Part shown: positions 2,151 to 47,220 of the stretch, one piece after another
How positions within the stretch are numbered: position 1 is the stretch's first letter
How the letters are laid out: every line of letters begins with the position of its first letter
From: Phoronis australis
Taxonomy: Eukaryota; Animalia; Phoronida
DNA length: 64,000 nt
NCBI GenBank assembly: GCA_002633005.1
Contig: NMRA01000105.1
Span: forward strand, 722,010-786,009
Reading direction: 5' to 3'
The notes under the pieces: generated by a model
Databases searched by the model: none
What the model was told of the DNA's origin: nothing
What the model saw: the letters and a program-made list of their open reading frames with translations, nothing else
Position numbers and translations under genes: made by a program

Positions 2151-5100
2151 CTAAAAAAACAAACTGGGATTAGTAGCCAAATGTATGTACAAATCCTTAC
2201 AGATGACAGCAAGGTACAGTTCTTCATGCCTCATTTTATTAAAAATTCAGAAAGCAGCAAAACTGCAGAATTTTCGGCCAGCCGTTTCTTCATCAAACGG
2301 CAATCAGGGTTGCTACATTAAGTTTACAGTACAGTACGAGTCCAATTTTATTGCAATATTGGATATCAACAATTTTAATTTCCTACGAACGTGATCTGTA
2401 ATGATGGTCTTTGTTACACAGAAGCGCACTTAATTACAGTAATTCAAAGTCAATTTTAATAATGGCATAAGACAACTGAACAACCAGTGACACACGACAA
2501 AGAAAGTTTCTTTAAGTAGAATGCATTTGAATCAATTCTATAATTTTGAAATGAAATAGGATTCCAAGGTACCATGGTTTAAAACAAAACCACATCAACA
2601 CCACAGAAAGCTCAAATAACAGTGGTCGAATATTAAAAACATCTCTCCTTTAGTTTGACTCCAGCTGACTGTCAGATATCAGCCTAATTCTGGCAGTCTA
2701 TTGTACCACATCACAAGTCACACAGCAATTATCTTCCATGAAGTATATTAAACTGAACATATCAATCCCGCTTGATATTCTGGTAATAGAAACAAATCAA
2801 AGTACATCGTTTTTGGTTAATTTTTATTATAAGCACTAATCATGTCATGGTCACTTCTAAGATTACGCAACACTTTGCCAGATGTCGCATTACAAGCTCA
2901 GCTCATGATTACAATAGCTAACATCCTGCGTCTACGGAATGCAGCCCATGTCCTTAAGTTTTCAGTGACGTCACCAGATGTTAAGGAGCCGACCACCATC
3001 CAGAATACATTTCAAAAATGACAGCAGCACTGTAGACAAAATCCTTTGCATTAGTGGAGCTTGATCAAAGAATTATTTATAGTGTGATGTGTCAATGAAA
3101 ACACTTTGAAAGTGGGAATCAATGAGCAAGAGTTCAGCCATGAATACCATAGCTTCATTGACAGCGCAAAACAAACTTGTTGAAAATCAAAGTAAATTCA
3201 GTCCACAACAACCAAAAATCAATACAGAGACTGAACATCGCTGAAGCAGGCAAGCCGAAGACGAACATTCAAAACTGTCGCAGGTACTATCCTTTGAATC
3301 TCGGAACGTTGTTTATGGTATACACAAAATATTTTCACAGATTGAAAATGAACATTAAAAAGTTGTTTGAAAGGATGAAAGGGTTTCACGAAGGTTGACA
3401 ATTAACTAAGTCAGTCTCTTCCGCTTCGACATCGGTGGAGAGTAAACTGCGAAAATAACGAGCTGTCATGGTGATAAAGCATTGGAATATTTATAATGAA
3501 AATTTTGAACTGACATTTCATCCAAATCAACAGCAAGGAAAGCAGTCACATGCTGAATCTAGGCATTTGGTATGAGTGATATGAATTTGCAGCGACTCAT
3601 GTGACATGTTTATCATTCAAAGCAATTCATACCAAGCTGAGTTTCAACAGTAGCTAATTGATGGTGAACTCATCAATGAAAGCCTTCAACAAAGCATCAA
3701 AGGCCATCATTAACACTGAACAATTAGTTAAGTGGGACTGGTCCCTCAAAATGATACTATAGCTAACTGTTCAGTGGAGTGAACAACTAAATGTAAGCAA
3801 AATAAGTGCATGAAAGTTAAATGACCTTTATATCCATAAACCACCATAATAGCGATGGTCATTAACAGAGCTACATTGCAGATAAACACAGAAATTGATT
3901 GGTTACGGTATTAAACCACAGACATGTTATGGATTTCAAAATTTACCAAGCACTTAATTGGAACCACCTTCAAACAGTGCTGGAGGGAACAACACAGCAC
4001 TTAACCAAAATCATCACCCCTAGAATGTTTAAAACCAATGAGGCAAGGCAATATTTGCATTTTAAAACAAATCAATGCTGTCCTCATTAAAAAGAGAAAT
4101 ATAAGAATTCTTAAAAGCTATTGTTGATACTAGCACTTTTTGTGAAAAGGACGAAATCAAAACTAGACATCCCAGTTAACAAGCCTTTTGTAATATGTAG
4201 CAAAACAGCATTTTAAACCATTTAAAATAAACTAGCTGCAAAGTGAGGCTTGACAGAAAACCCAATACATACCTTTAGATGGCAAAACTTAAGTCATAAG
4301 TCATAAGGAAGATTCTCCTTCGCAGGAGTCCAAGAAAATGTGAATATACCCTACCCACAGTCATCCCAATGCCCACCATATTTCCCCAACAATACATTAT
4401 CCGCCCATCACCCCTCCCCAAGTGTGGCCGCCACTTAAGGTTTCATTGCCCTCATGGTAGATCTGCAACCCAGACTGCAAAGCGATTCAAAAGTCACACG
4501 AATTTGTCACTTAATCACCAAGCTGTACCCTGCCACCTTCAGATACATGGGGCATGTGCTGAAACAGACAAGTTCTGTGACCAAGCACTAGATGGAGCTA
4601 TTTGTTAATTCTTAGCGGTGTCTGTTTTTTGATTTATTGCAGGAATATCAACTTGCTATCAAGTCTTTAAACTGGGTCAAATTTCACTTTTGTGGTGTTA
4701 CTATAACAAGTTTCACTCATTCATCAAAAACCTTAGTCATAAATGCGGGGTTAAAATAAGGAATGTTTCCAAAGCTATTTTAAGTATGATGTTGTAGTCA
4801 CTTGATCACAGTGAGAGTAATTTTTCAAACGACCTAAGAGTTGATAGGATCAAATTGCAAGACCAAAAATGAATGCCAATCCGCAAAGACAAAGAAATCA
4901 TTTGATTAAGTACAAAAAGCATGCAAAAAGACCAAAACAAAGCAATTTTCAATGTGTCTTCTATAACCTGTACTAGTTTCTAAAAAGTTGGTGAGTTTTG
5001 ACAAAATTTAACCCGCTTTCTCAAAGTTATGGCTATGAACCAAGGAGATAAGAAATGACACCAAATCATTTGGAAATTTGCCAATAAAAAATTATGATTC

Positions 5101-8913: not shown

Positions 8914-10986
8914 CGTGAATCTGAAAATTGTTCTTGAGCCCTATTGAAGTCACACAGGAACATCTAGCAGATGAATCAGCAGGACATTGTGGTGAAAAGA
9001 CGCACTAATCATTTTAAAATATAACGTGCACAGGCCACTCAAAAAGACCCATTGCACTGATCATCTAGAATCATTTTATGCTTTATTAATATATGGTTAA
9101 AACGGAGTTGAGGAGCTAGAGGCCTGAATAAAGGGTCTGACAGTGAGAGCCAGTGGGACATGAACCCACACTGCCTCCTACAAACCAATCGTTTTTGTTG
9201 AATTGAAAAATAATTGTACAACCAAAAATGTAGTTGTGGATGTAAGTTTTTAGTAAAAAATCACTAGTCATCACTGAGAGAAGTAGATAACCCAAGATTC
9301 TGACTGGAACTAGAAGTGGACTTGATGCAGACCAAGTGGATGAAAACATTTCACTATACTCAGTAATAACTACTTTCATCAAGGCTCAAGCTTAGAGTTG
9401 ATAAAAGTTCAAAATATGAAATTTGCCAGTTGACACAAAATTGCTTTTATCAATTCAAGGGCCCTTTGCACCAGTGTCAACAAATCCATGTTATGGGGAG
9501 TGTACGAACAATTAACTTTGATTTTTGATCAATGTCGAGAGCACAAAAATAACTTCAAATTAAATAGGTAAATTTTAACAGCACAGCGTCGATGCTTCGG
9601 TATGATACAAAGGCTCCATTGAAGGAAGAATGTCTGTCCATAATGGCATGTATTATGGTATGATTCATAGTTTTAAAAATTCACCACTCTAGCATTAAAA
9701 GTACTCTACAAAATTGTGTAGAAGTTATTAAATTAATTAATATACCATCTCTATGTTATTTCACTCATTACTTGCGCCTGCATGTTTTCAGGGAGCAACA
9801 ACCTCGACGACCCATGCATGAAACGGTTATATTTTCCTATAACAAAGCTTGTCGGAAATGTTCAACTAACTTCGAAGTTTGCATCGATGCTTTTTCTGCT
9901 GATGAAGATGTAACGGTGAGTAAAGCTTAATGATCGAAAACAAAACAACTTTCACATACCTGCTATTACACAGTAACAGCAAACATCACTTTTAACATCC
10001 ACACTAGAAAGGAAAACTTCACAGTCTACCTGTATAGCTCTCTCACGATGAAATAAATATTTATACCTTGGTAGGCACTTATAATCAACTGTCAACAAAG
10101 GTATTGATTTTTTGATGCGACATTTCACTTGAGTTAGCCAATGATATGGCATGTGTCTGCAAGACTCTCAATACTATTAGGATGTAACAGACAGATAGCT
10201 GCTTATAACGTCCCTACATATTGTGTACAGAGTGACCCAAACAAACCCAAACCAACAAAAATGTAATCTATCCTACATTTGGTGGACTCAACTGCAGTGT
10301 ATGTATGATAATTCTAAAAAAAGTTTAACCATAAATGTCAGTTTGCATTAGATTTTTTGTTCTTTCCAAAAGAATTTATAATTTTCTGGGTTCAATTTTT
10401 TGGTTCTTTGAGTTCATTTTATAGCTGTGAAAAATACCTTTTATCAAAGATAGTAACTTTTAATGAGAACTTTTTCATGCAGAACAGAATCTAGTCCAAG
10501 ACCTGTCTCGTGGCAAGAAAAATCTCGCCAAAATCATGTGCTCACACGACGGTATCTCATAGAATCTTGTGAGATCTTGCTTTTCTTGTGAAACACCAGC
10601 GTTATTGAACTTGATCCAGGTCTGAACGTGTTCCTTGTTCTTTAGAGAACTATTTCTTGGCTCAGAAAGAACTGGCAGTTTATAATTACTAGAGTAAATG
10701 GTAAGTGGGTGAAATAACCAGCCAAGACAAGCCAACTTATTGAGCCTGATCTCAAGAAGTTCTTCGTGACACTAGAAATCCCCAAAGGATTTTTTTATTG
10801 TGATTTTGTTGACTCTTCTAAATCATTTGATACAATTCTACATCAAGTGCTTTGGCTTAGGCTCTAAAAATGGAAATCATGTTACTCTTTGAGAATTTCA
10901 CAGCAAAACAAAGCAAATATCTGACGTACAACTATTATTAAAATCTCTTGGTCTATTTACACCGACCTCTAGTCTATATACACTGT

Positions 10987-11028
10987 CACGACGTTTCGTT
11001 CGGTCTGTTCTCCGGCCATCGTCAGGTG
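10987..11028 (-). ncRNA. Minimal type I hammerhead ribozyme motif (left arm)
   Basis: cac-CTGACGA-tggccggagaacagaccgaac-GAAA-c-GTC-gtg: conserved core, stem I cac/gtg, palindromic ACGT stem III. Stem II partly decayed. Confidence 0.65.
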
Positions 11029-11068
11029 TTCCCGCATGGATACGTGGTACACTCATGGTGTGATTTTT

Positions 11069-11151
11069 TGTGCGAGGCAGGATTTGAACCCACGACTTCC
11101 GAAACTACAGATAATTCGAGTCCACCAACTTAACCACTACAACACGTGCTC
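11069..11151 (-). pseudogene. tRNA-derived SINE head (Ser-CGA-like loop, long variable region); not a functional tRNA
   Basis: Minus strand GAGCACG-TGTTGTAGTGGTTAAG (A-box-like) ... GTGGA-CTCGAAT ... GTGGG-TTCAAAT-CCTGC (T arm/B box). Acceptor and anticodon stems pair poorly. Confidence 0.7.
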
Positions 11152-11172
11152 GTTCTTCTAAGAACGCGGGAA

Positions 11173-11214
11173 CACCTGACGATGGCCGCAGAAGAGACCA
11201 ACCGAAATGTCGTG
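11173..11214 (+). ncRNA. Minimal type I hammerhead ribozyme motif (right arm)
   Basis: cac-CTGACGA-tggccgcagaagagaccaacc-GAAA-t-GTC-gtg. Inverted copy of the left motif with independent substitutions. Confidence 0.6.
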
Positions 11215-13249
11215 ACAGTGTATATAGACTAGAGGTCGGTGTAAATAGACCAAGAGATTTTAACAATAGTTGTAATATGCCACCACCTCAGAGCGGTTTT
11301 AGGAAGTCATTAAATATCTGATGTGTGTGAGAAGACCTGATGGTATAATGTACTGTTAGTATTAGACAAGGATGTATTGCGCCCTCTTTTGTTTACTTTG
11401 TAACTGAATAAATTTGTCCATCCATGTCAAAATGTCACTGATATGAAAGTATTGTTATATGCCGATTATATGGCCCTTTACACCGACTCACCAGTTACAC
11501 TACCAACTGCAGACTTTCGTTCACTTCTGACAAACTTTGTCAGAAATTTGGTAGGTTAGTAGATTTTGTGAATATCCAAATTATGATGTTGAAAAATTAT
11601 CAAATGTGGAAAACTCAAAGTGGTTTCTAGTAATAAGTATCTTGGTGTTACGTTCAATATATTCAAAATCATTGTACACCACAGCTTAATCAGACCTTGT
11701 CAGCCCAAGCTACTAAGGTTGCCATTGCAGTCGATGAACTAGAGAATTATCAATGCTTTAAAATGGTTGGTACTAACAAAAATGGGCTTGTTCAAGAACA
11801 CGTATGGCCACAAGGGAACACTAGCGTGTACTCTTATGTGTATGGCATAATCGAGGAGTAATTAGGCTAGACCTGGTGAGACTTCAATCACTGTCCTCGA
11901 CACAGCGTAATTCCTACCATTAATGATGATTTCACAACTAGAATAATATGGATCATTGTTGATCAACTTTTGTAAGTAAATAGTGTTTTATCCTCATTAA
12001 CAACTTTATTTTTTAACTAGTTCAAATATCAGCAAACTATCTAAGTTATTTCCCCTGACATCAGATGTTGGGGAATCCCTTCATGGAATCTGATGTTCAT
12101 TACATTATCACCTTCATCTCGATGGAGACAATCACGAAAGTGTGTAAACTGTTGCAGCTAGGTTTTGGATTAAAACTCAAGCAGAAGGGTTGTATGTTAT
12201 CGGTATCTAAACAAAAAAGACGTTCCGGCCGTTCTGCCATACTGCCTAAAGACACCATGTTTACAAAAGCGCCATCTACCAAGCAAAATGACGGAAGTGA
12301 ACTATTTTCCTAAAGACTAATATACTCCATATAAGTAAGATAATACACGCAAGTGTTGGCTTACGTAGTAAATGGTTCAGATAGGCTTACATTGTCAAAT
12401 TATGGCTTCTACAAACTTGTATTGCATGTGAAGATTCATGCCTTCGAAATTTTAACAAAAGAATAACTGAGAAACACAAAGGTTCCATTATTACTACAAC
12501 CCTTTCAATGAAAACAATGCCATCAGACTACAATGCAACAAGCAAAAACCCTTTCTCTCTACTACACTTAGACCTTAACAACACGGATCTGTTTTTTGTT
12601 ACAATACTATTTCAAAACAAAGCCTTTCAAGACAACAGAGCAGTGTTCTAGTTCATGTGTCAACTAGTGCCAGTACCATCAGACATGGAAAGCTATGTAA
12701 AATACACTGTAACTTAATAAATTACAAAGACATCAGGAGAAACAGTGAGAGAGCCTCAAAAAGGATTTTTATTAAAAGCATAAGAAAAATTGTCTGGTTT
12801 TCATCGGCAATTCACCAAAACAAGGTGAACAAAACAAAGAAGCAGAAAGGAGTGACAATTAGGACATTTTACCTTTACATCTCTAAAAAGCAGATACGTG
12901 TGAATGCAAGGAGCAAAATTGAGTTTTGCTGTTGGCTTCATGAAAGTTAACATAAGATGGCAGTCAGAGAAGATAACTCTGCACTTAAGTTCACTAAACA
13001 TAAAAAATAATACGATAATGAAATAAAATGCCTTTGCAAGTAGGATGGAAAATATGAAGAAGAATGTGATAACAAATGTTACCATGATGTAGAGCATATA
13101 GTATTAAAATGTGCCCACGACTGCAGCGCAAACAGTATCCTTCCAGGCATGTTTATTCGTATAAAAATGGCCACCACATGAGCAGAATAAGCTGAACCAA
13201 TCAGAAAATGGGAAGGCCTCGTCCTCTCCCTAAAAAAACTTGTTAGCCA

Positions 13250-17562: not shown

Positions 17563-19840
17563 ATGGACGTCAAGTCAATTTCCACTATTTGTAAGACATT
17601 GTTCACGTTATTAGTTCGTTATCTGACCCTCTTACGAAGACGCCAGCGTCGCCGATCACAGTGGTTGAATTTCAGTGAACATGAAAATAACTTCGAAGAT
17701 GTTACGTATCCGTTGCATCACTGAAGGTTAAACCGTCGCCGGCGTTTAGCTGCGGCTGCAGGCTTGGTCGAGCTACAGTACCAAGTGTCGTATGTGAGGT
17801 ACGTTTACTTAAAACATATTTTACTGTCCATTCATTAATCTTATTAACCGTCAGGTTAGAGTGCGCTTTTCAACAGATTCGTTAGATTGTCCATTGCAAA
17901 GAAATAAAACCATACCTTTACAGAATTACTATATCTTGTCACAAATGGCCTTATGTTCCGACTGATCTCTAAAAAATACTAGTAAACCCTCACTCAGAGA
18001 ACCTAAATATCGGACAGCATGTTCCCTACACGCCACACTGCAGTGACCATGCCATGGTTGCGGGCATCTGCTCGCCAAATTGTTGCTTGTGTAACACAGC
18101 TCTATTCGCAGTGAAATTATCCATAAAACGTAATCTGATGACAACATTTCGATGAACTAGTGCAGACGAGTAGAGGGCGTGCAATCTGACTACAGGTTTT
18201 AGCATCTTGTTGCCTTCTTGATATGACACATACATGCGTGCGGCTGGGGTTTGACTTGACTTAAAAAATGAATCTGGCTGATCAAGTGCTGTGTTGGTCT
18301 GGATTTTGAATATGTGGCAGTGTGGCACCTCCCTACACAATAGGTGGAAGAGAGCAACTGCTGGTACTTCTCGTTGTCATTTGGAATGACCTTAACATAA
18401 AGTTTTGTATTTCTTTTGCAGCATTAATGTTCGATAAGGAATATGTGAGACAAAGACAACGAAGTTCTCATTTTTGTAAAGAAAACATAATGATTTGCTG
18501 TTAGTGAATTAAATAAATAATGGCATAATGTCTTTTGTTGAACCATTAGGGCCACTCCTAGAAGACAGTCATGGTACAACGGTTTATGGCAAACTGCAGA
18601 TGATGATGAATGGAAGAGACATTTCAGAATGTCAAGTGCTACGTTTCTAAGCATCACTGAAGCCCTGCAACCTTATCTAGATAAACAGACAACCAATTTT
18701 CGTATTGTAAGTTTAATGGGACATTTTCTGAATTATGTGTTGAAATATCACAACAAAAAGTGACAGACTACTATGCTCGAAGGGTAGTGTTTCGTCGTCT
18801 GGTCACTCACTTTGGTTTCAAAACTATTGAATTTGTTCATAACATTATTTGAAAACATTTTGTCGGATTTGCAAAAGTTTTGAATCATGCATTGTTGGTT
18901 GCGCAACGATTTACACACCAAATTATATCAACCTTATTTCATACTAAGTAACTAACATTTGTCTTTCAGCCTATCAGTGTTGAAAAAAGGGTAGCTGTAG
19001 CTATCTTCAAGCTTGCTTCTGGGTGCTCATATTGGATAGGTCAAGAACTGTTTGGCGTTGGGTTGTCAACATCGTGCAACTTGTTGTACAGCTTGGCTGT
19101 TGCCTTAACGCAGGTACTGGGTCCTGTGTACCTGAGGCGTCCGAGTCATGAGATAGCCCAAGGATTCAGAGACTTGTGAGGTTTCCCACAGTGCATCGGC
19201 GCTATTGATGGGACCCAAATTCCTATTGTGGCACCACGTGAGAATCGTACGGATTATTACAATCGCAAATCATGTTATGCTGTTGTCATGCAGGCATTGT
19301 GATCATCGTTATCCGTTTTATGACATTGAAGCTGGATGGCCTGGAAAGGTGCATGACGCTAGAGTTCTGCGAAACTCGCGGATTTTTGAGGCTGAAGAAG
19401 CAGGTACCCTACTTCCTGTGCACATGGAAAGACTTAATGGAACACCAGTTGGTTTGTTTATCATTGGAAATCCTGCTTACCCACTCCTCCCATGGTTGAT
19501 GAAGGGCTACACTCGTCCTAACGATTGTGCTGGGAACAATTTCAACTTTCGGCTGAGCAGTGCAAGAATGTGCATTGAAAATGCTTTTGGCACATTAAAG
19601 ATGAGGTGGAGATGTCTTTACAAGACATTAGAACACGGTGTTAGTGCCGTGCCAACTGTTGTTCAAGGATGTGTGATATTACACAACATCTGTGAAACAC
19701 ATGGTGAGCAAGATGTTCCTCAGCAGCCGGACAACAACCAAGTCAATCCACCTGTCCATCCCCAATAAGTATTCAACAGAAATGGCATTGCCAAGCGTCA
19801 ACGTGATGCATTATGTGCTCATTTCTTCCAGCATCCATAA
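17563..19840 (+). pseudogene. Harbinger DDE transposase (HARBI1-like), spliced, inactivated
   Basis: Exon 18550-18706 (WKRHFRMSSATF), GT-AG intron, then exon from 18970: PISVEKRVAVAIFKLASG...GFPQCIGAIDGTQIPI...YYNRKS...AGWPGKVHDARVLRNS...GNPAYPL...ENAFGTLKMRWRCL...CVILHNIC. In-frame TGA before GFPQ, frameshift near 19298, and GD of the GD-x-AYPL motif changed to GN. The 5' exon from 17563 is tentative. Confidence 0.9.
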
Positions 19841-20106
19841 TTTTGGCCTTTCATATTAGTCTTGGGCACCAATCTTGATTTTTATGCACCCACATATACC
19901 TGTATAAGTGTGATTATTGATGTCATCTCAGTATGAGCATCCTACTTATTCTGCACTATATAATGGCCATTTGCGCAACGTTTGAACCTTGTATAATTTA
20001 TCTGAATGTTGTCTCGATAGTCAGTCAAGACTTACATGGTGAAACCATTGTCCGGCGCTTACTCTTTTTTTTAATCAAATTATTTTCGGTAATTTCTATT
20101 GAACTA

Positions 20107-20363
20107 CCGTAAACTCGCGGGTCAACACCCATCCCCGACTTTTGATCAATTTTCCGTTTAAGCGTTCACTGCTCGAGTAATCGCCCATCCTATATTCTGT
20201 GCAAATTTCCCCTAAGCGTCCATCTCTTGGGTAATCGTCAATACCCGACTTTTAGCCAATTGTTCATTTTAAGCACCCACTGCTTGGGTAATCGCCCAAC
20301 CACCTGCCGAATGTTTTCCCCAATTTAAGCGTCAAGGGCATTAACCGTCCCGCAAGTTTACAG
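20107..20363. mobile_element. TA-flanked CCGTA-ended MITE nested in the Harbinger
   Basis: TA|CCGTAAACTCGCGGG ... CCCGCAAGTTTACAG, with ~60-bp internal tandem units containing gggtaatcgccca/ttaagcg. Confidence 0.65.
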
Positions 20364-20869
20364 TTATTATTAGACAAACTCAATTGTCTATAATCCTATG
20401 CTGTGGTAATCAATGGCTAATGTAGTTTTTTAACCATAGTTTACACTTGAGTATTCCAACTTTAAGGCAAAAATTTCAGAGTCTGAACATGAAACATAGA
20501 GATTTTATGAGCTCAAATCTATCGAATCTAGGGGCCATCAAGTTCCAAACTGGTGCTATAAATTCACACAAAAACCATAACGTGGTCAAGCACAGAATAA
20601 AAGAGACTTGCCTTGAGTACAAAGATTAAACCCTGGCCTGTGGTCTTGAAACATTTAATGTTGAGTTGCTGTTGAAGTTGAATCATCCATACCTGCATTT
20701 CCCTGACAAGCCTGGATGCACTTGTGCTGGAGAGAGATCACAACAGTACAGCTTATACGGATTCAAAATATTATATATTAACAAATCTTATTACACATAT
20801 ACTGGTGGAAGAGATGTTGCGTAACAAACGTACATGTTAAAAGAATATTTATATAATGAGGAGCTATAA

Positions 20870-20873
<4 letters not shown>

Positions 20874-20905
<32 letters not shown>
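20874..20905. repeat. (TG)n microsatellite
   Basis: Direct inspection. Confidence 0.95.
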
Positions 20906-20907
<2 letters not shown>

Positions 20908-21098
20908 CTTAAAAGCAAAACATTTATATACAGACGAGTTATAAATACGTTAAAAACTATGACTGTTGCATGGATGGACTATAAATATACATGTTAACAA
21001 GCACTTACAGATGTTTCTTTACTACTTCACTACTATTATACTACTACACTACTTTTAAATATTCTGATGGACACTACTTTTATTTACATATGAAATTT

Positions 21099-22778
21099 CT
21101 ACCATTGGTATTTTGCATGAACTGTGGATATGACTGCGAATGAGTATGCTGGTATGAAGGTTGTGGCTGTTGTGGATGTTGATGTGGTTGTGGATGAGGA
21201 TGAATGACACTTTGCATGGTCTGGACCATTTATCCCATCACGGCCATGAGGCTGGTCATCTGGGCAGCCTCCTGCTGCTGTTGTTGCTGCAAGAGGGTGC
21301 TTTGTTCCCTCATGCAAGCTCGTTGTGCCTCATGCCACTCATCTTGAGCTTTCAGACTCTGTTGCATCGCCTCGCGTAGAGAGGCAGCCTCTCTGTCGTC
21401 TTGTTTCAAAATCTTCAACCATGCCGGAGCCTCGCTTGCATGCCGCTTCCGCTTGCTTGCGCCTGGCATGACAAGCCTGGAGGATGAAGCACATCCATGT
21501 GTGGTCAGACTGCTGCTTCTGCTGGTGGAAGCCTCACTTGGTGTGTCACACCTGGCATCTTCATCCTCTGCATTGTCCTCACCTAAAATAGAAATGTAAT
21601 TGTGATTAACATGATTAGCTACCAGTGTAATTGAACTTAAACGTCGCTTAGGGTATGTTTTATGTTTTGAAATAAAACAATTTAAAAACATGGCTCATAA
21701 CTTTAAGCATGGCTCAAAGCTTTTCAAAAATGGAACTGGGTATATTTTAATATCATGTCGAGGCAAACATTTGACAGCACCACAAAGGGGTGCAGCATTG
21801 TATTCAGCAAGTCACTTCTTAACCAGTAACCATTTTCACTTACCACCATCATCAAGGAGGCTGTCTTTCTCACTATCGCCATCTTCAGCTTAAATATCGG
21901 GGTCATTCCTTTGAGAATCTGAAAAATGGAATATGGATAACGAATCGAAGAAATAATTATAAATACAATAAAAATAGCTTTGCCGAATCATTAACCTCAG
22001 CCCTTGTGACATGCGTTGAAGGTTAATAATATACCATTTTTTCTTAATCTTTATTTTTTGAGAGCTTCAACACAAAGTCAATAAATAGAATTCCTCTGAT
22101 CAGCCATGCAAATTGTGGATAAGTGAGCTGAATAATACAGCTCTGACACAGACTATGCAGGGGTGGATTCAGGATTTTTTAAAAGCGAGTCGGATCAAGA
22201 ATTTTTTAAAAAGCGAGATCAAAGACAACACTGAAATCCAGTAAAGGGCGGGGAGGGGGGGTTGTGCGGACCCCCTTGACCACCCCTGGATTCGCCTACT
22301 GAAGTATGCTATAAATAGATAGTCTTTCATATAAAAATCAAATTTAATTAATGTTTTTACTCTAATAATGCTAGGTTGTTTGGAATCGAATATCACTTAC
22401 CGACAGACCTAACCAAGTTGTCTGGGTTAGACAGAGGTCTGGTCCCCAGAAAAGAATCTATGCCGTTGAAGTGGCAGCCGATTTGCTTCGCAACGTCTGC
22501 GGACGCACCACTCTTCTTTTTCGCGTCACTCGCCTTCATGTATAGTTGCCTCAGGCGTTTGCTTTTAACTCTGACTTGCTCAGTGGTTCGCCGGGGGAAC
22601 CCCATTTCAGCCATCTTATCCAAGATGATGTTATACGCTCTGCCGTTTTTTTCTTTGCCGTCCAGAATGGCGAGGATGGAACCTCATCCCAGGCTGCTAC
22701 TAGGACTTCTACTTCTTGCAGCAACCAACGACTGCCACATTGCATGGATGACGAACATGATTTCGAGAGTTTATTCAT
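21099..22778 (-). pseudogene. Harbinger Myb/SANT-like (trihelix, MSANTD-type) DNA-binding protein, 3 exons, frameshifted
   Basis: Exon 22401-22778 RWLLQEVEVLVAAWDE [frameshift] ILAILDGKEKNGRAYNIILDKMAEMGFPRRTTEQVRVKSKRLRQLY...FNGIDSFLGTRP. Acidic exon 21844-21918. Exon from 21582 down with KRKR and a Gln-rich coiled-coil-like tail. GT-AG junctions seen. Confidence 0.85.
22158..22301. mobile_element. Small CAGGGGTGGAT-ended MITE in intron 1 of the Myb gene
   Basis: TIR-like CAGGGGTGGATTCAGG / CCTGGATTCGCCTACTG. TSD not clearly preserved. Confidence 0.65.
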
Positions 22779-23213
22779 TTTAAAGAAGCCAATATCCAAT
22801 AAACACTCACACGTTGAATACTGAGAAATGGCGGTAAAATTTCGTTCCGTGTGCGTTATGATTTTTATTTTTTTTCTAGTGAAAACTTGAGTACTTCAAC
22901 AATTAGGCTATGTGTGATAATTGACATAAAACTTTCTTCTTACTTCACTAGTGATTACTTGACGAAATTATTAGGAAGTATTTACGACGACTGCCCTTTG
23001 CTAACGATTGCATTGCCGTCTCGCGATAACTTCGATTGGACCGGAATTAAGCGTTCACTCTGCACCGCAGCGTCGACACTGCGGTCTTAAATCCACCTGT
23101 TAACTGTGATGTTAATTAGAGCTGTTAACTGCAATCCAGGACCGGAGTTAAGCGTTCATACTGACCGCAACTCCCTAACCCATCGACTTGTCGACGTTAG
23201 TATGAAAGGCCCT

Positions 23214-25139: not shown

Positions 25140-25310
25140 CTGAATTGCGTATTTTACTCTCACGAAATTGGTCATGTAATTTTCCATACCTTGATAGTAT
25201 TCTATTTCCGTTACCGAATCCTTCAGAGTTTGGTAGCGGAAATAGAATCCAATCACAGTAAGGAATATTGTGAGACCAATTTAATGAGAACAAAAGGTCT
25301 AATTTAATTT
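25140..25310. repeat. Long imperfect palindrome (fold-back element)
   Basis: Core attctatttccgttaccgaa / ttggtagcggaaatagaat around 25225. Pairing extends to aaattggtc / gaccaattt. Confidence 0.7.
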
Positions 25311-26330: not shown

Positions 26331-26568
26331 AACATTTTTAAGTCCAGTCAACATGCCACCTATGGCCACATAGAGCTACCTAATGAATTATAGTCTGAAA
26401 AAGATTTCTGGCCAAACTAGGACTCAAACCCAGCACCTTCTGCTAACCATGCTGAAGGTCCCACTTAACAGAAGGTGCGAGGGTTCGAGTCTTGGTGGGG
26501 CAGAAATTTTTTCAGACTTAAATTCATTAAGTCACGTAGGTAGTGCGCTGACCAGACTTAAAAATTTT
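26331..26568. mobile_element. Two tRNA-SINE halves in inverted, tail-out arrangement (family B)
   Basis: B-box GGTTCGAGTC on + at 26482 and GGTTTGAGTCC on - at ~26420-26430. Both halves end outward in the (c)cagacttaaaaa(t)gtt-type tail. Confidence 0.7.
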
Positions 26569-29500
26569 CCACATCAGAATTTCACATTAAACCATTTAAT
26601 TGACCGTCCTAGTAAAACCAGTGATAATACCAAAGTTTTGAACTGAAAAACAATCGTTGCACAGTGAATACAAGTATTTGTAGTATGTCTAGGCATGTTA
26701 CGAGCACCTATATCCTTCACAAGATTCTTCAGAATCTCTACATTCCACAAGCCAAATAGCTGCAGAGTACTAAAAATAGGGTATACATGCCTACATCTCA
26801 AGCATCACTTTCAGGCACGGTTCACACAGGCACACGCTCCTAATTCCAGATATAAGCAGTTTTAGATACAGGCGCATGGGTCTAAATATCTGCATATAGA
26901 GTGATGGAGGGCTCAAAATTCACCAGGAGGCGCAACTGAAGAACACGTCCAGTTTTTATGACCTAAACAGAGTGGTAGCAGAAAGCTCTTTGACCAGTGT
27001 AAAGCAAACCTTGTCTAGATACCAAATGATTCTTGTGCCAGAAGATCACATAATTATATAATACACCATCTGTGGTCGACAGGTAGGTATTAACTAGCAG
27101 ATATCACTTACAAGCACTAGTATTTCCAATAAAATAAAGTTCAAGTGATTTATGGGTTTCTAGAATTCTAATTCCATTACAATAAGAATGAATAAGCACA
27201 GCATTTTTGTACCATACAGGTCGAGAGATCACAAGCCGAAATCAGCTTGGCATTATCACATTAAGATTAGAAGCCCTCAAACATCGATAACTTAAAGCGG
27301 TGATAAACCAGTCGACCAACAAAAAAAATCTTGATTCAGAATCACTTACCTTATGAAATTGGTCTCAAATTGTTTGTTTGTTAAATTGGATATATTTCAG
27401 GGCTGTAAAAGAACTGACGGTTCGTGACGCCTCGAGAACGGGCGCCTCGTCACGGCGCATCATTTTATGCGCCGGTCACGGTCTCAAGTAATAATCAACT
27501 TCTCTTCTTTGTAAACTCAGGAATCGCTCCTCGTCTTGAGTGAGGAACAATTTGAAACCAGTGTAAGATTAGTAAGTGATCTAAATTAAACGGTCGATTC
27601 TCGGACGGAACACCGGGTTCATAGCTGCTTTAAGACGAAAACAACAGATTTATATTGATTGAATGGTGAAAAGGATAAAGCCACATCGCAGAGTAAGTTT
27701 ACTAGCTAGTTAGAATGTTTGATTTCCATTTCCATCAGTGCTGAGACTGCATTAAACCAGCCCTGTGTCAAACAAATAAGTTTGGATTTGGGCCACTTAC
27801 CATGATTATAAAACTGAATCCTGTGGCATTGCAAGATACAAGGTAACCGGTAACATACAGATAACGATATAAGATGGCACATTTTCACCAATTTTTTTGC
27901 TTCCTTTAAACTTTATCCACCCTTCTATGAGGAATATTTTATCAAAAATGACCCGGACTACTTATAAATGAGTAGGGTAGGTAGTCTAATGCTGAACTCC
28001 GATGGTCTTTTTCAGGGCCATTTCATTCACAGCGTTCTTCACAAAACTTGGTATTTTTCCAAAATAACTGTTTACTTTTTAACCGAGGATGAAAACTTTT
28101 AATTAAGGTGTGTGCATCATTATCAACTAGAGTAACCCTTGGTTGCCATCCTTCCTCCTACCCCTATCAAGTAAGGCATCACGCCATGCCCATGAGATCT
28201 TTTAATTTGTGTGCACTCCCACACACACAAACAAGTAATTTGTCTTAGGTGGTTTCATTGCTCTGTTATTGACACTGCTATTTTCATTCACTTGCTCATG
28301 TATCAGCTTCACTATTTACTGTGGAGGATAGACATGCGCCCTCCCAGTAATTTGAAGTGATCTGTACAAGCAACAGTCACGAATAAGCCATAAACTCCAA
28401 GCAGGGCTGCAAACACACGCAACTATAATTGAAAATCATGACAAAACCAGTTCCCGTGAAGACAGCTACTCACCCCTGAGAAGTTCCCGAAACGCGCCTC
28501 AGTCTAAACTTGCATAACCTGAAAACCATAAATGATTAATATCAAAATTACAACACAAAAACAAGACCTGCGACAGGATCATTAACACTATGTGCAGAAC
28601 AAACATCAAATAATCGCGTATTTCACAGCTGTGACCAGTGATCGAGCAAATTAACATTTAGTGTTGATTACCAGATCGATAACAAGGAAATCAAATAAGC
28701 CAGACTTCACTTACCTTTGGAAGGCTTTGGTCTTTTACCTGTTCATTTCAACAGAGACAAATGTTTCCATCTTTATCTTGGACGGAAACCGCGGTCAATT
28801 GGTGATGATAAGCGCAGTTTAAAAATTTCTGAAAACTTGTCTCGCGGACACTAAAAGCAATACACCTCAAGATCGAGAGGAGCCAGTGAATTTAAATTTT
28901 GTTCGAGATGCATTAGGTCCAATCACACACACCATAAAGAGTACTTTCATGAAGTCAAATAATTCCCCTATGCCACCAACAGAATATTTCGACCATAAAT
29001 TCAAAAGCAATGTCAGGTGTTTGTTATCACATGGAAGGATCTCTTTTTTTTACAAAATCATCATTTTCCATTAAAATTGTCGTATTTCAAAAAGAAATTT
29101 TAGCACAAAACTTGGAAATTCTGTTTGCCTACTTCATTACCTAAAAAACGTTACTTTCTGAAATTTTTAAGGCCTTTTAGAACGAGAACTCTGTTGTCAA
29201 AAATGAAGATGCCAACATTCCTTGAAAAAACGGAGGTTTTAAGTTTTGAAAGCTGAGCTCTCGGATTAAAATACCTTAAAAGAAAATCTCAAACACGCCT
29301 CGTAGTTAAAAAATAACAAAACAGAATTTGTTGGTTTTGTGCAAAAAATGTTTTTTGAGTAAAATACAGTGATCTGCGTGTGATCAAGGCTTTTATTAAA
29401 AAGTTGCATGAATGTAGCTCTAACCCCCCTTCTGTCCAAAAAGCAAACTTCTGATTTATACCACTTATTAATATAAGAGATGAGAAGTGACTTTTGCAGG

Positions 29501-36282: not shown

Positions 36283-37327
36283 AACAAGAGCAACGCAGAG
36301 CGTTGAAATGCGCCCACAATTGCACCGTATACGGTATCCTTCTAGGGTTGTTTATTGGTACCATAAAGTGGCCAGTAGAGGGCATATATGTAGTATGTTG
36401 TACTTTGCAAAATGGAAAGGCATGGTCATTATCTCCTCAATAGGCTAGGGGCAAAATGTGAGTGATCTTCATAATACAAGCACATCTCATACATCAGTTG
36501 CTTAAAGCACCACAGAAACATAGAATTAAAAACAAATTTACCAACATACGAGATTAGCACAGCATTAGAATGCCAGAAACAAATTTCTACTTGGAACTTT
36601 TCCTTCATAGTCACGAAGTAACACAAAGTATACACCTGAAGACCTATGAAAATACAGAGGTCAATGTAAAATACTTAAATTGCCACTAGAGGCATACCGG
36701 TAGTCAGAATCATCCTAAAGTCGTCATCGTCCGTTGTCAACATCACATAAATACACTTGTTAAATTTAGTAAAGATCCTGCAAACGGTTTGGGAGATACA
36801 GCCATGGGGCAAAAAAACTGCCACTAGGAGGCGCCACAGTAATCAAAGTCATGGGAAATTCGGCGTCAACCGTCCTCTTCATAGTAAGAACATACATGCC
36901 AATTTTCACAATCATACTTAGAGTGGTTTGGTTGATAGAGGGGTGGACGCCAAAAAACAGACTCAAAAACAGTAAAAATGGCCACTGGGTGTCGCAAACT
37001 AGGTCGAATCCATCCGAAAACGGGAGGATAGCGTCATCTCACTAATAGGTGCCTACATACCAAATTTCATGAAAATCCATTCAGGACTTTTGAAGATACA
37101 AAGGTAAGCGTAAAAAACTAAAATTGCCACTAGGGGGCACACCGGTAGTCAGATCTGTCCGAAAGTTCGCACATGCCGTCCCATTCATGAATGGAACATA
37201 TGTGCCAAATTTCATGAACGTATGTCAAAGGGTTTTGGAGATAGAGCAGCGGACGCCGCCCGGACGGACGGACGGACGGAGATGACGGCATAATGCGTCC
37301 ACATATAAATATGTGGGCGCATAAAAA
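36283..37327 (+). mobile_element. Non-autonomous Helentron-type element (HINE-like), nested in an older copy spanning ~36003-37850
   Basis: Starts aacaagagcaac. SubTIR ATGCGCCCACA vs TGTGGGCGCAT. Central degenerate tandem units, (GGAC)n microsatellite, terminal hairpin atgcgtccacatat-aa-atatgtgggcgcat, inserted in an A-run. Confidence 0.75.
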
Positions 37328-39658: not shown

Positions 39659-40640
39659 AACAAGAGCAACGCAGAGCGTTGAAATGCACCCACAATTGCA
39701 CCGTATACGGTATCCTTCTAGGGTTGTTTATTGGTACCATAAAGTGGCCAGTAGAGGGCATATATGTAGTATGTTGTACTTTGCAAAATGGAAAGGCATG
39801 GTCATTGTCTCCTCAATAGGCTAGGGACAAAATGTGAGTGATCTTCATAATACAAGCACATCCTATAAATCAGTTGCTTAAAGCACCACAGAAACATAGA
39901 ATTAAAAACAAATTTACTAACATACGAGATTAGCACAGCATTAGAATGCCAGAAACAAATTTCTACTTGGAACTTTTCCTTCATAGTCACGAAGTAACAC
40001 AAAGTATANNNNNNNNNNNNNNNNNNNNNNNNNNNNNNNNNNNNNNNNNNNNNNNNNNNNNNNNNNNNNNNNNNNNNNNNNNNNNNNNNNNNNNNNNNNN
40101 NNNNNNNNNNNNNNNNNNNNNNNNNNNNNNNNNNNNNNNNNNNNNNNNNNNNNNNNNNNNNNNNNNNNNNNNNNNNNNNNNNNNNNNNNNNNNNNNNNNN
40201 NNNNNNNNNNNNNNNNNNNNNNNNNNNNNNNNNNNNNNNNNNNNNNNNNNNNNNNNNNNNNNNNNNNNNNNNNNNNNNNNNNNNNNNNNNNNNNNNNNNN
40301 NNNNNNNNNNNNNNNNNNNNNNNNNNNNNNNNNNNNNNNNNNNNNNNNNNNNNNNNNNNNNNNNNNNNNNNNNNNNNNNNNNNNNNNNNNNNNNNNNNNN
40401 NNNNNNNNNNNNNNNNNNNNNNNNNNNNNNNNNNNNNNNNNNNNNNNNNNNNNNNNNNNNNNNNNNNNNNNNNNNNNNNNNNNNNNNNNNNNNNNNNNNN
40501 NNNNNNNNNNNNNNNNNNNNNNNNNNNNNNNNNNNNNNNNNNNNNNNNNNNNNNNNNNNNNNNNNNNNNNNNNNNNNNNNNNNNNNNNNNNNNNGAGATG
40601 ACGGCATAATGCGTCCACATGTAAATATGCAGGCGCATAA
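39659..40640 (+). mobile_element. Second near-identical HINE-like copy spanning the assembly gap
   Basis: 39659-40008 is nearly identical to 36283-36632. Sequence after the gap (40595-) matches 37279-37323. Confidence 0.85.
40009..40594. other. Assembly gap (N run)
   Basis: 586 N bases. Confidence 1.
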
Positions 40641-40673
40641 TAAAGCAATTGAAATTAAGAGTCAGCTACCAAC

Positions 40674-42909
40674 CCTTCTTTGCACTGGAGAATGTACCCC
40701 AGTAGTGGCTTGTTGTAGCCCGTCAACTTCTCAAAGCCTTCCACGGACTGCTTGGACCAGCTGGTGCCAGAGGTTGGGTAGACATCCTTGAGACAGCAAT
40801 GATAAGCAAACGGAGGAAGCTTCCTGAACTCAGGGATCAGCGGGAGGACTTTGTCAGAACTGAGCCACTCTGAGTTACCGTAATCCATGTAGAACACCTT
40901 GAACTCACTGCCATCGCTGATGGCTTCTCCACTGCGTTTCTCGACAATCTCCGCACGGTAGAAAGAGTTGTCGTCTGAAAACTGAGCACAGCAGATGTCA
41001 CCAATGCTGAGACCGCCTAGAAATTTATTCAGCATGAAGTTGTTAAGGTTACCATAGTGTTTTGCTAACTGTTCCATAAGGGGATCTAACTGGGCCGCTT
41101 CAGGCGACACCAAGTGGACATAGAAGTCTGCCGGTGACTCGATATGGGACATCATCACTTTAATGGAGCCATCATCATTAATCGGAACATCTTGTTGGGT
41201 AAGGCCAAAACTTTCACAATCTGTAAGCTCATCAGTTACCTCTTCCATTCCACATGGAATGGTGTTAGAATTGGGTGAACTTTCTGGTTGGAGAGGTTGC
41301 TCTCGTTTCCCACTGGAAATATTTTCTTTGACTGTTGGTTTGCTGTCAGCCACACTGCAAGAATTTTCTCCTGTTGGCTGCAGAGCTCCATTAGAGCAGT
41401 TTTCTTCATTGTTTGGAACGGAGACACAACTATCATGAGACACCTGCTCCTGTTTTGTCTGCTCAGCACCACTCAAGCACTTCTCCTGAACAACTGCCTC
41501 ACACTTTTGCTCATCACTCTCGTGCACTGTATCAACCACAGGGTCTTTAACATCATTCTGGCAAGATTGCTCCACAACATTCTGTTGCGTATGCTTGACA
41601 TCAATCCGGCCGACCTGCTCCAAAACTTCCTGTTCAGCACCACTCTTGCACATCTGATCGGATGTTGATTGATCAGCTATCTTCTCAGCTCCATCTTCCA
41701 ACCACTTCTCAAATTCTTTATGCTTCTCATAGTTCTTAGGTAGTTTGGGAGGGAACCCCAGCTCAATGAGCTTCTGCTGTGGAGTCTTGGATCGGCTGTC
41801 GCTCGCCTCACTTAGACTACGACCACTGGCTTGTAATGTTGACTGCAGAATAGCCTCATTAAGGCACTCATCAAAAGTCTCATCTGCAAGCAAATCCTCC
41901 CACGTCTCCACAATGTTACTTCCAACCTGGGAAGATTGGTCTTCACTGCTGTGGACAGCATCCACGTTCTTCTCTTCACTGACAAGTGTCAGATCTTCTT
42001 CAGCCTTTTTCCCTGCAAGTGAATCTGTACTTTCCAACTTTAACTTTAAATCCGAAACTGCAGTTTCTCCTGATGGTGATTTTGCCATAGCAACTGGCTT
42101 ATGTTTGTCAGTTTTAGAGATGTTGTCAGCAGATGAGCTCTGGCATGCTTCAATGAATTCCGGCACAGCGAGTGATTTCTTCTTCTTTTTCTTTTGCTTC
42201 TTTTTTGAAGGTGTCAAATTCTGGCCCGAGCTGGCGGATACAATCGACCCAGAGACAATAGCGCCCTCACCGTTACTCGTATCCTTCCCAACAACATTGA
42301 TATCTTGTTGCTGGTCACATAGTGCTTCAACCTTGTCCTTTCGTTTTCCATCACAAAAACTCTGTTCAACTTTCTCTTCAGCCAACTTAACATCACTTAG
42401 AGCAAGCAACGGTTTGTTTCCAGTCAACTCTTTACCATCAACATGAAGTCCTCCTTCAGTGTTAACGTGAGAACCACCACCTTGTTCTGAAATACGTTCT
42501 GCTTTAGTCTGTTTGGCATCCTTAGATCTCTCAGGTATAACATCTTTTTGTTGGTTTTCTCCAGATTTCCACCAGGTGGTGTAAAAAGACGTGTCAGTCG
42601 ACTGCTTGACACTGCTGCCAATAACATGGTCAGAGACAGCTTTTCTCGGAGGAAGATTTGGAGAACTGGTTTTAACCGGTTTCTCAACGAGACAAATGTC
42701 AGATGTAGCACCGTGTACAGAAGATTCCGGTATTCCCTTGGCTTTGGGAATAGTCGAACTATTGTCCACCATCCGAGAGATTACAGGAAATCCAGCACCA
42801 TCTTGTTGGTTTTGTACTGAAGGAGTTGTTTTGGGATTACTTGATGTTTGATTGATTATCTTGGGTGCGACTGAAGCTATGACCTCCGTGAAGGTCATGC
42901 ACGTCCAAT
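40674..42909 (-). CDS. Multi-Tudor gene, coding exon 9 (2,236 nt: long low-complexity linker plus second extended Tudor domain)
   Basis: 772-aa ORF trimmed by ccttacAG| and GG|GTTGGT. Contains KVMMSHIESPADFYVHL...CCAQFSDDNSFYRAEIV...KVFYMDYGNSEWL...LPPFAYHCCL...WS. Basic run KKKQKKKKKK. Confidence 0.95.
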
Positions 42910-43760
42910 CTGTAAGGAAAATCAAATCAATATTACAATCACGATAAAAAACATTGAAAGGAATTTGTTGCAAAGATTGGTTTTTTGAATGGTATGCTAC
43001 AATCAGAGAATTGGCTGTGAAACATAATTTCTTGCCATTTTTGAGCAGCGAATTAAAGAGTCACTGTTTTATCAAGAATGGAACTTTGCGGTGGAGAATA
43101 GCTCAAAACTCGGTACATAAACCTCATTTAAAATGGACTTTGAAATCGAATCCTACTTGTTGCTTGCTATTTCGTATATTCTTATATCAGCTATGGCTAA
43201 ATTACATTGCTCTAATCAGAATTTAATTACAGAGAAAGGAAGCCATACTCTTGTAGAACGGAAGACCCTTGTGTGCTGCTTCACTATGAGACTAACTAAT
43301 GATGAATGAAAATCACTTTATTAGTGTTTGTAACAAGTACCACACTCCAAAAACTCCATTATGTGAGTAGTTCTGGCATGAACCAAATTAATAAATATAA
43401 ATTTGTAAAATTAATGAAAGCATAGCATTCTACAGCTCAAATTAACCTTTCCAAGTTTGGTTTTCATGCCACTGCCCTTGAGAAAAGGTGATTAGCACTC
43501 TTCTGTAACTACATGTTAAAAGTGGGCTAAGGCTCTAAATGTTGTCATTGTAAATAAACTGATTGATTAAAACATTAAGAGTCCATCATCACTAATTTCC
43601 ACGTTTTACTCACTACTACGCCATCTTTCAACTGTCCGTGCAACACTGAACACCGCAAATCATAACAATAGCAATGCAAAGAGGTGAAACGCATCTACGA
43701 CTGCGCCTCAAATGGCATGCTCCTAGGGGTGTTCATTGGTAATATAAAAACGGCACTTAG

Positions 43761-43833
43761 CACAGAATATGTCACACAGAATATGTCACACAGAATATGT
43801 CACACAGAATATGTCACACAGAATATGTCACAC
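43761..43833. repeat. 14-bp tandem repeat x5 (cacagaatatgtca)
   Basis: Direct inspection. Confidence 0.95.
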
Positions 43834-44125
43834 TCAATAATTGAACATGAGAAGCTACTGTAGTGTACTGGATAGGGAACTATTGGCCAAATTTCAAAAA
43901 AAGTCCATCAAGGAACCCCAAAGACACAGAGACAACGGCGAAAAAGCAAACTGGCTTTAGGAGGTTGAGTGGGAGCCGGATACATGCAGGTATATATGTG
44001 GCCGCATACAAAAGAATAACATTTCATTGGAAGATCTTGTAATTTGTCCCATGGTAATTAAAATTCTTGTTCTTCTTATGCCTGAAGATTTAGACTGTCA
44101 TGTTCACAGCTACCGAATCACCTAC

Positions 44126-44426
44126 CATGAACATTGGACTGGATAGCTAACAGAGAATTCAACATCTGCACCACGTGTTTCTGTTGAGCCTTACGAGCCT
44201 GTCGATGGATGATGAGATGATCGCCAATGTTCTGCATTATGTCAGCTGCGCACGGCGACCTGGATGGGTCTTGTTTTTCAGTGGGGAAATATAGGTCCGC
44301 AAAGCGTACAGGACAGTCGTCACTCTGCGGCATCAGAACTGCCTGCAGGGGGCGATCACGCACAAGTCGACTGAACTCAATCGCATGCTCCGGAGCCCAT
44401 TCTTTCAACGAATGAGGGGGTGCCAC
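44126..44426 (-). CDS. Multi-Tudor gene, coding exon 8
   Basis: VAPPHSLKEWAPEHAIEFSRLVRDRPLQA...NIGDHLIIHRQAR (eTudor C-terminal part). AG/GT, phase 0-1. Confidence 0.9.
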
Positions 44427-44880
44427 CTGTGACACGTTAAAATGTGCATTAACTTTTGTCCTTCATTTTGAAATGATAGTACAGTGATAAATTTCCAATT
44501 TCGGACAGTCTCTAGAGTTTGGGACATGGAAACTCCCGCAAAAATTGAATTTTCATCATTCTGGAATTTGGAGTGATTTTGACGATCACCACATTTCTCA
44601 AATTTCATACGATGTGTTTCAATCTACAGAGTGGGTAATTTAGCAATCTCTTTGGCGATTCTTGAATTTGGGACAGCCAATATTGCCCATTTCTAGAATG
44701 TGGGACAAACTCCGATCTTGAGCAAAATAGATAATTTTTCGCTGTCGAAAATTGGAGAATTTTTTACGTATTAAATAAATGCAGAAGATAATCTCTGGTT
44801 GAAAATGAGCAGATTAGAAGAGCAACAAATGCTTCTTCACTAAACACAATAAATTCACTTGCTCCAAATTATACTTTAGG

Positions 44881-45238
44881 TACTGTAAAGCTGGGGCGTT
44901 TTTTTAGGACATGCTCCAAACCCAGCCTCTATTAGAGGGAAGTGCTCATTGGAGACCCAGTGTTTATTTATTCCAGTCTTACGGCAGGCCAATTCACCGT
45001 ATTGTATGATGGCAAGTGAAAAAATGAGACTTTTCAAATTGTCCGCTGAGGTTGTATCATGCTATTTACGTGAGCAAAAGAATGACTCCTCCATGGTATC
45101 CAGACAAAATGGAGAAACAGCCTGTATTAGACGGAGGGCCTCTATTACAGTCCTGGCATTTACTTATTTCAACATACCTAGACTCTCGTTTTCTATTAGA
45201 GTATAAGAGATGTGGCTTCTACTAGAAGCTTTGCGGTA
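44881..45238. mobile_element. Degenerate TA-flanked MITE
   Basis: TACTGTAAAGCT ... AGCTTTGCGGTA ends, with a repeated ctattaga motif inside. Confidence 0.5.
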
Positions 45239-45740
45239 ATTTACAATTTCCACGAGTAACTGATACCAAAGATAGAATTCAGAGAACATGAAATCAAATA
45301 ATGGAAGACAATGGTTGACGTGTATTCATGCAATGTACCCGAATCATAATAAAATCACACCAGGAATAGCTGAAAACACTCTAAGAAAGTGGAATCAATT
45401 TTCAGGGCACCTGCATACAGTGTATGTTTAAAACAATAACTTGCATTGTCTTGGAGACTCCGTCAACATTTTCAGATCTAATTTGAAGCACTTAAATTAC
45501 ATTGAGGAACAACGTCATCAGCTTAACAGAGACCTGACAAACAATATAATTAAAGACTCTATTTATACCATTCACAGACGATGTGTTAAAAATTCTAAGC
45601 TTTTTTTAAGCATTTGTGCCAAAAGTAATCATAAACCAAATAATTAACAGGCCACTGACCACGTTGTTTATCACCACTCTGAACTAGTTTTCAGGAGTGT
45701 AACGTCACCACTTTCCAAGCGTATTACTTGAACACCTCAC

Positions 45741-46870: not shown

Positions 46871-46904
46871 CTGCAAGCACAGGACTATGAATGTAGTACC
46901 GTAA

Positions 46905-47160: not shown

Positions 47161-47220
47161 TAAATATTGATTGACCACAAATAATATTAATAAAAATAAT
47201 AAATACCATAACAACATATA

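Follow-up and report, generated by a model that had tools for sequence, protein, structure and literature searches.

The 64,000-nucleotide stretch of Phoronis australis contig NMRA01000105.1 analyzed here (the window; all coordinates are positions within it) carries an insert that consists of two back-to-back copies of one abundant repeat unit, joined head-to-head at 11145-11146. The unit combines a tRNA-like head with a minimal hammerhead ribozyme motif. It probably forms the terminal repeat of a Penelope-type element and not a self-standing short interspersed nuclear element (SINE). Specifically, we somewhat favor the view that it represents the pseudo-long terminal repeat (pseudo-LTR) plus tail of a longer Penelope-like element (PLE), whose 5' end carries a tRNA-derived, likely RNA polymerase III (Pol III), promoter. 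Such a head would be an unusual promoter for Penelope-type elements. PLE-type mobilization of the family is supported, because its 3' ends lie 37 bp apart, its head-to-head junctions are variable and the insert is flanked by a 13-bp target-site duplication (TSD).

Two copies of one repeat unit

The insert is bracketed by a direct repeat (10915-10927 and 11312-11324) with 12 of 13 matches, the chance of which is about 1e-5 per random end pair if 4x4 bases of slack are allowed. Between the duplications lie inverted arms at 10927-11035 and 11166-11274 (109 bp, 94.5% complementary), and one of them alone is extended by 37 bp. An earlier sequence-only reading of this stretch had described the flanking repeat of about 13 bp, the inverted hammerhead arms and the one-sided tail, all of which were recovered. 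That reading had treated the whole as one element; the insert is instead made up of two copies and is not a single 385-bp element. The longer copy lacks about 5 bases of the 5' end of the head as well as 18 bases between 11038 and 11037. No second copy of the insert is found elsewhere in the window. The features of the locus are:

10700-11760, plus strand: decayed reverse transcriptase (RT)-coding host element split by the insert (approximate limits, from RT motifs)
10915-10927, plus strand: left TSD, 13 bp of host RT sequence
10928-11146, minus strand: 219-bp copy without tail, the longer of the two, composed of head, ATG, hammerhead and arm, from comparison with family reads
10987-11028, minus strand: minimal type I hammerhead motif of the left copy (core 11025->10990; predicted cut after 10990)
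11054-11056, minus strand: ATG, 12 bases behind the head; start of the open frame and of database matches P0041-P0044
11069-11146, minus strand: tRNA-like head with long variable arm, weak alone and present family-wide
11080-11090, minus strand: B box, exact match to the searched pattern
11128-11139, minus strand: A-box-like motif, from sequence; the family majority departs from the window at 11128
11145-11146, no strand: head-to-head junction, a 2-base overlap common to both copies, with loose ends before 11145 and behind 11146
11145-11311, plus strand: short 5'-truncated tailed copy, 167 bp, with one frame open over 55 codons (11145-11309)
11152-11165, plus strand: small spacer hairpin that follows the ATG and precedes the hammerhead, missing by deletion in the left copy, from opposite-strand joints
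11173-11214, plus strand: minimal type I hammerhead motif of the right copy (core 11176-11211; predicted cut after 11211)
11218-11259, plus strand: internal duplication with a 21-base period that keeps the frame, from sequence and translation
11275-11311, plus strand: 37-bp PLE-type tail, on one side only; the family ends at 11309-11312
11312-11324, plus strand: right TSD, 12 of 13 bases identical to the left one

The host had been read as an old long interspersed nuclear element (LINE) RT. Stop-ridden RT motifs are indeed present in the translation of both flanks, and Pfam RVT_1 matches the right flank only (E 0.0075), the left flank and a third host piece being without a Pfam match. Judged by these motifs, the host is probably of LINE type.

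The family was viewed in seven of nine indexed public DNA and RNA sequencing runs aligned on the locus, the RNA runs being chosen by species label; they include X1 and X2, which are DNA runs of the same sample; X6 record 10 is a contig of a second organism, organism B. The family is high-copy and seen in two organisms, in DNA and RNA runs. In X1 the near flanks have a summed depth of 46-58, compared with 4,000-105,000 within the insert, and depth changes sharply at 10927 and 11309-11312. Depth over the head is about 19,600, and the ratio to the flank over the B box, which is not a true copy number, suggests hundreds of copies. Thirty-six joints were found, and in five of the 15 listed the spacer at 11038-11053 is tied to 11145-11150 on the opposite strand. 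Four of these five recur in DNA and RNA runs alike, and four further rows of the same kind come from a second set of runs. The usual unit is therefore direct, in the order tRNA-like head, ATG, spacer with small hairpin, hammerhead, arm and optional tail, and the organism B contig has the same direct order.

Eight of the ten skip joints listed cross the center at differing points, each in one contig; these are other head-to-head pairs, each with its own junction. The head-to-head junction of the window is itself crossed, over 11105-11302, by an X1 contig (record 3, depth 21, 27 differences, 7 gaps); this junction may have arisen more than once, or the pair itself may have been copied. Among the 15 of 36 joints listed, no tail-to-head (tandem) joint is seen. 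Two discrete 3' ends, 37 bp apart, are found: 53 X1 contigs stop at the tail end (11309-11312) and 14 contigs stop tail-less at 10929. Flanks behind the tail end agree at 0.39-0.44, no better than simulated random flanks (0.39 at n=25, about 0.45 at n=9). The 13-bp duplication is known from this one locus.

The tRNA-like head, the hammerhead motif and the open frame

Taken alone, the head is a weak tRNA match (Rfam tRNA 14.5 bits, E 4.1, cut-off 29), ARAGORN reports no tRNA there, and the B-box pattern at one mismatch gives 3 matches against 1.64 expected. The head, with CGA at the anticodon position and a long variable arm, may resemble tRNA-Ser. Its presence across the family is seen in read depth and in majority letters at 11125 and 11128. 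Both boxes are kept in the family majority, variants of the B box making up no more than about 1% of X1 depth, and the head is coupled to the hammerhead across the family, in several runs and both organisms. The sequence-only reading had placed the head at 11151->11069; its 5' limit moves to 11146, since 11147-11165 belong to the second copy. The proposed direct passage from head into hammerhead is found at the left copy, only because 18 bases present in most other copies are missing there.

Beyond 11146 other copies add 5 head bases and then a shared non-tRNA leader, which extends at least 25 bases upstream of the tRNA +1 and is common to several copies and both organisms. All 30 leader letters displayed agree between RNA reads, two X5 contigs and one organism B contig; agreement within RNA reads is 0.79 for 15 X7 reads and 0.95 for 21 X9 reads, and sequence variants of the leader mark several loci. 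Most DNA contigs begin within about 15 bases of 11146, at or just before the tRNA +1, and one X5 contig holds a copy that begins 2 bases before it. RNA reads, from ordinary RNA-seq, lie on both strands, and about 70-82% of them run on into unlike sequence, as copies inside host transcripts would be expected to do.

The hammerhead core pattern has 2 matches in the 64 kb, precisely the two arms, against 0.17 expected; they count as one event because the arms are copies of each other. In both arms the core is conserved and a single unpaired U precedes stem II; stem I has 3 bp, and stem III is palindromic and loop-less. Stem II is decayed, with 4 of 6 pairs in one arm and 3 of 6 in the other, and family majority letters at 10999, 11189, 11200 and 11208 repair it except for one mismatch. 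The right core carries a C-to-T change in stem III, whereas C prevails in the family, with 72% of X1 depth and 103 of 127 X7 reads. Since stem III is loop-less and palindromic, cleavage would need a dimer in tandem RNA. Rfam models report no hammerhead at the locus, and the assignment is at motif level. Free folding yields no hammerhead fold, the left copy being no better than shuffles (z 1.06). In RNA read from the locus in either direction the two arms are predicted to pair as a single long duplex, and neither X7 nor X8 has reads on the near flanks; because of both, the hammerhead of this copy is predicted to be silent. Read ends do not pile up at the predicted cut, which such RNA libraries may not show. 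Loose ends at 11054 and 11165 stem from expressed family copies without hammerhead core or stem II.

One frame, which starts at the ATG behind the head, has no stop across hammerhead, arm and tail in either arm of the window; 2 and 9 stops occur in the right copy's two remaining sense frames. In shuffled sequences an open frame arises by chance with a frequency of 0.068 for any frame and 0.019 for a given frame. A search of the peptide against 1.84 billion proteins returned four matches (P0041-P0044), all short unnamed gene calls that begin at the same ATG, with 70-74% identity and in-frame indels. Two of the four read through the tail and two stop at the arm end, which confirms the two 3' ends. 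The frame is kept in six copies, the two arms and the four database copies. A frame from an ATG in stem II, as in the anole element Poseidon_Ac, was rejected because it closes early. Peptide searches of viral and genome contigs gave nothing usable, L010 being a 19-residue bacterial chance match. No PLE protein domain was found in 95 of the 108 stop-free window frames of 78 or more codons, and no autonomous partner sharing the 3' end of the unit turned up in metagenome, genome, viral contig or protein searches.

End repeat of a longer element or self-standing SINE

The sequence-only reading had proposed a PLE-mobilized SINE. PLE mobilization stands, given the ends, junctions and TSD. A plain, monomeric SINE is disfavored because the ATG frame is open to the tail end and an upstream leader is shared. 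It is further disfavored because the one PLE studied in vitro needs RNA downstream of its RT starts that is lost from inserts. In that element, Poseidon_Ac, two internal RT starts delimit the tail, and RNA is needed up to base 172 of the open reading frame (ORF) (PMC11167929). If this RNA need holds here, a solo copy without the downstream region cannot be its own source.

The strongest competitor, which we consider possible and clearly less probable, is a self-standing SINE of another kind: a Pol III RNA of about 290 nt, derived from the 5' end of a PLE, would be copied in trans by PLE proteins, the frame would be a relic, and tandem sources would provide the leader and a downstream binding region, as in schistosome Sm-alpha. 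The head-to-flank depth ratio with its hundreds of copies, the start of most DNA contigs within about 15 bases of 11146 and the X5 copy that begins 2 bases before +1 all fit this account, as does the failure to find either a continuation behind the tail among the listed loose ends or a long protein. Non-autonomous PLE derivatives are moreover on record (MRC1, PMC8557442; retrozymes, 10.64898/2026.07.22.740005). Against it stand the leader of at least 25 bases in several copies of two organisms, the frame kept in six copies, the 70-82% of RNA reads that pass into unlike sequence, and the finding that no joint leads from the tail end back to leader or head among the joints listed.

A number of observations weigh against the unit being the end repeat of a longer, Pol III-driven PLE. 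Known PLE promoters are of the RNA polymerase II (Pol II) type (PMC2377424, PMC3846280), that of Penelope included (PMC2377424). P0041-P0044 all pass into unrelated sequence after the unit and, as gene calls, are selected for open frames; 7 of 23 family differences are silent in the frame, with no silent excess. The peptide led to no long protein, either among 7 candidates or among the 4 short matches in the 1.84 billion proteins. No RT or GIY-YIG gene was found linked to the unit in reads, window frames, or protein and contig searches, and no run-shared continuation follows the tail among the listed loose ends (12 of X7 and X8, 6 of X1, 4 of X6; 320 more). Leader agreement among DNA contigs is 0.66 (9 X1 contigs) and 0.60 (8 X2 contigs, same sample). 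Simulations fit these values either with most copies ending 10-15 letters out or with a minority that has the whole leader; most DNA copies drop the leader after about 10-15 letters, and a SINE start fits equally well. As to Pol III itself, the unit contains T4 runs at 11258-61 and 11297-300, each of them passed by copies that continue further, which makes for a poor fit, and the RNA-seq reads, being on both strands and mostly running on, show no discrete small RNA.

That the unit belongs to an ordinary Pol II PLE, in which an old SINE piece became fixed as a passenger without promoter function, appears improbable, as both boxes are kept in the family majority and 5' ends cluster near the tRNA +1. 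The fold-back look of the single locus suggests a miniature inverted-repeat transposable element (MITE), its terminal inverted repeats 109 bp long, or else a tRNA-SINE piece nested by chance between PLE ends. Both can be dismissed as highly improbable: the MITE, which the sequence-only reading had already called a mislabel, is refuted by direct units, variable junctions, asymmetric ends with a one-sided tail and the 13-bp TSD, and chance nesting, for which absence of the tRNA part from other copies would have spoken, by a head that is tied to the hammerhead in several runs and two organisms.

If the unit is the end repeat of a longer PLE, the following course of events can be envisaged by analogy with described PLE schemes (PMC11167929, PMC8557442). 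The longer element would be transcribed from near the head, yielding RNA that runs through the hammerhead into the ORF. PLE protein would nick both target strands about 13 bp apart, and reverse transcription would be primed internally, both at the tail end and at the arm end. Of the resulting cDNAs, one would reach almost to the RNA 5' end (219 bp), the other would stop after 167 bp, and the two would anneal or join via the 2-base overlap to give a head-to-head pair. Starts in the first repeat would yield short products that reach back to the RNA 5' end, and starts in the downstream (second) repeat of a tandem would yield leader-bearing copies. The hammerhead would cut only as a dimer in tandem RNA.

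We tentatively raise the broader idea, at present doubtful, that in a PLE lineage a tRNA-derived Pol III promoter took the place of the Pol II one, a single repeat then serving both as the 5' end of a coding ribozyme RNA and as the source of hundreds of SINE-like copies. This would be a PLE counterpart of SINEs and of the Pol III-driven miniature retrotransposons with terminal repeats (TRIMs) known as TRIMp3, possibly recurrent in unrelated lineages. PLE geometry, minimal hammerheads, a tRNA head combined with a hammerhead (Sm-alpha) and Pol III heads in TRIM repeats are already known. Listings of openly available papers contained none that deals with a PLE repeat headed by a tRNA or with a SINE that has PLE ends; Dfam or Repbase may already have an entry for the family.

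PLE transcription and the origin of PLE repeats are poorly understood. Here a putative promoter, an ATG, a ribozyme motif and two presumed RT starts lie within about 290 bases, so that a single small construct would allow three questions to be addressed: the polymerase responsible for PLE RNA, the ability of short copies to move again or their fate as dead ends, and the role of the minimal hammerhead. Should the short unit move alone, PLEs would be a third kind of SINE helper beyond LINEs. Repeat finders would split the family or mislabel it as a MITE, tRNA pseudogene or SINE.

Other loci and comparison with known systems

Family-specific 22-base patterns had no matches in metagenome, genome and viral contigs. 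A general B-box-plus-hammerhead pattern had none in viral contigs and 9 in metagenomes, none of which belongs to this family: 4 are prokaryote-like chance matches, 4 are single records that look like a SINE beside a hammerhead remnant, and 1 is a record with a PLE-like RT (L005). In L005 (469-704), a 1084-bp repeat unit holds the C-terminal part of a PLE-like RT, relatives of which carry RVT_1 and PF26215. After the RT come a stop, then motifs that resemble A and B boxes and are spaced about 80 bases apart, then a T6 run and finally a minimal hammerhead. This single metagenome record, unrelated to the present family and without an Rfam tRNA match, is possibly an independent tRNA-like PLE repeat. 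L006 (oriented 3765-4178) shows a near-intact tRNA-Thr-like head (ARAGORN match), a T6 run and a minimal hammerhead, and the last 27 bases of its arm are repeated inverted upstream in a PLE-like geometry; this arrangement may be a chance adjacency. L001, L002 and L003 are eukaryote-like metagenome contigs with SINE-like B boxes 60-90 bases before minimal hammerheads, and L003 has two hammerhead motifs 140 bases apart.

Elsewhere in the window, remains of a PIF/Harbinger-type DNA transposon lie at 19157-22895: DDE_Tnp_4 is matched at 19157-19765 (E 1.4e-20), and Myb/SANT, encoded on the other strand, at 22396-22683. A gene with multiple Tudor domains has exons within 40655-49674 on the minus strand; they include an 801-codon open frame and have TDRD1/TDRD15-like relatives at about 35% identity, the best named relative of one Tudor exon being from a bivalve (34%). 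A 350-bp direct repeat (36283-36632 and 39659-40008, 98%) beside an assembly gap near 40000-40600 is possibly a recent repeat or an assembly artefact. Short fold-back (MITE-like) repeats are found at 25152-25295, 26378-26532, 29087-29358 and 53478-53579, and one fold-back family recurs at about 14310, 39290, 53480 and 61450.

The insert resembles those of endonuclease (EN)-positive Penelope/Poseidon elements, in which a head-to-head inverted 5'-truncated copy and a one-sided tail of 30-40 bp are described (Adineta Pen2a, PMC3846280; anole Poseidon_Ac, PMC11167929; scheme in PMC8557442), with TSDs of 8-10 bp in Adineta (PMC3846280) compared with 13 bp here. A minimal hammerhead motif is a further common trait; in those elements it lies near the ORF start, and repeat plus tail carries the first codons of the ORF (PMC3846280, PMC11167929), the first 22 in Adineta Pen2a (PMC3846280). 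The ATG frame of the present unit may correspond to such an ORF start. The unit differs from these elements in its tRNA-like A/B-box head, where they have Pol II-type promoters (PMC3846280, PMC11167929), in an ATG that lies upstream of the hammerhead and not at stem II, and in that no RT/EN gene was found linked here. Hammerhead cleavage was dispensable in vitro for Poseidon_Ac (PMC11167929).

At motif level, the putative ribozyme shares with minimal PLE hammerheads a palindromic stem III that has no loop, a single unpaired base ahead of stem II, a short stem I and, in the family, the G10.1-C11.1 pair, and differs in a stem I of just 3 bp and in a stem II mismatch even in the family majority (PMC4209133). 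Opposite-strand pairs of minimal hammerheads 100-700 bp apart have been reported before (PMC4209133). Retrozymes have been linked to PLEs (PMC7761336, PMC7229834, 10.64898/2026.07.22.740005), and the non-LTR retrozymes among them are likewise short hammerhead repeats of non-coding length tied to PLEs (PMC7229834, 10.64898/2026.07.22.740005). They are, however, defined by tandem units and circular RNAs, whereas no tandem joint is among the joints listed here. The available text of PMC7229834 describes no tRNA head, and the term tRNA is absent from that of 10.64898/2026.07.22.740005.

Schistosome Sm-alpha and Sj-alpha are high-copy animal repeats in which a tRNA-derived Pol III-type promoter is followed by a hammerhead (PMC6765202, PMC2770079), as would be the case in the present family. 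Their hammerheads are canonical and the units tandem, in contrast to dispersed copies with PLE ends and an open frame, and the available text of these accounts mentions neither a PLE tail nor head-to-head geometry (PMC6765202, PMC2770079). Finally, TRIMp3 elements (Helenus, Ajax, Cassandra) also hold a tRNA- or 5S-derived Pol III promoter within a retroelement terminal repeat (PMC10886601). Those are non-autonomous LTR elements with primer-binding site and polypurine tract and TSDs of 4-5 bp (PMC10886601), and the unit described here would be their PLE analogue.

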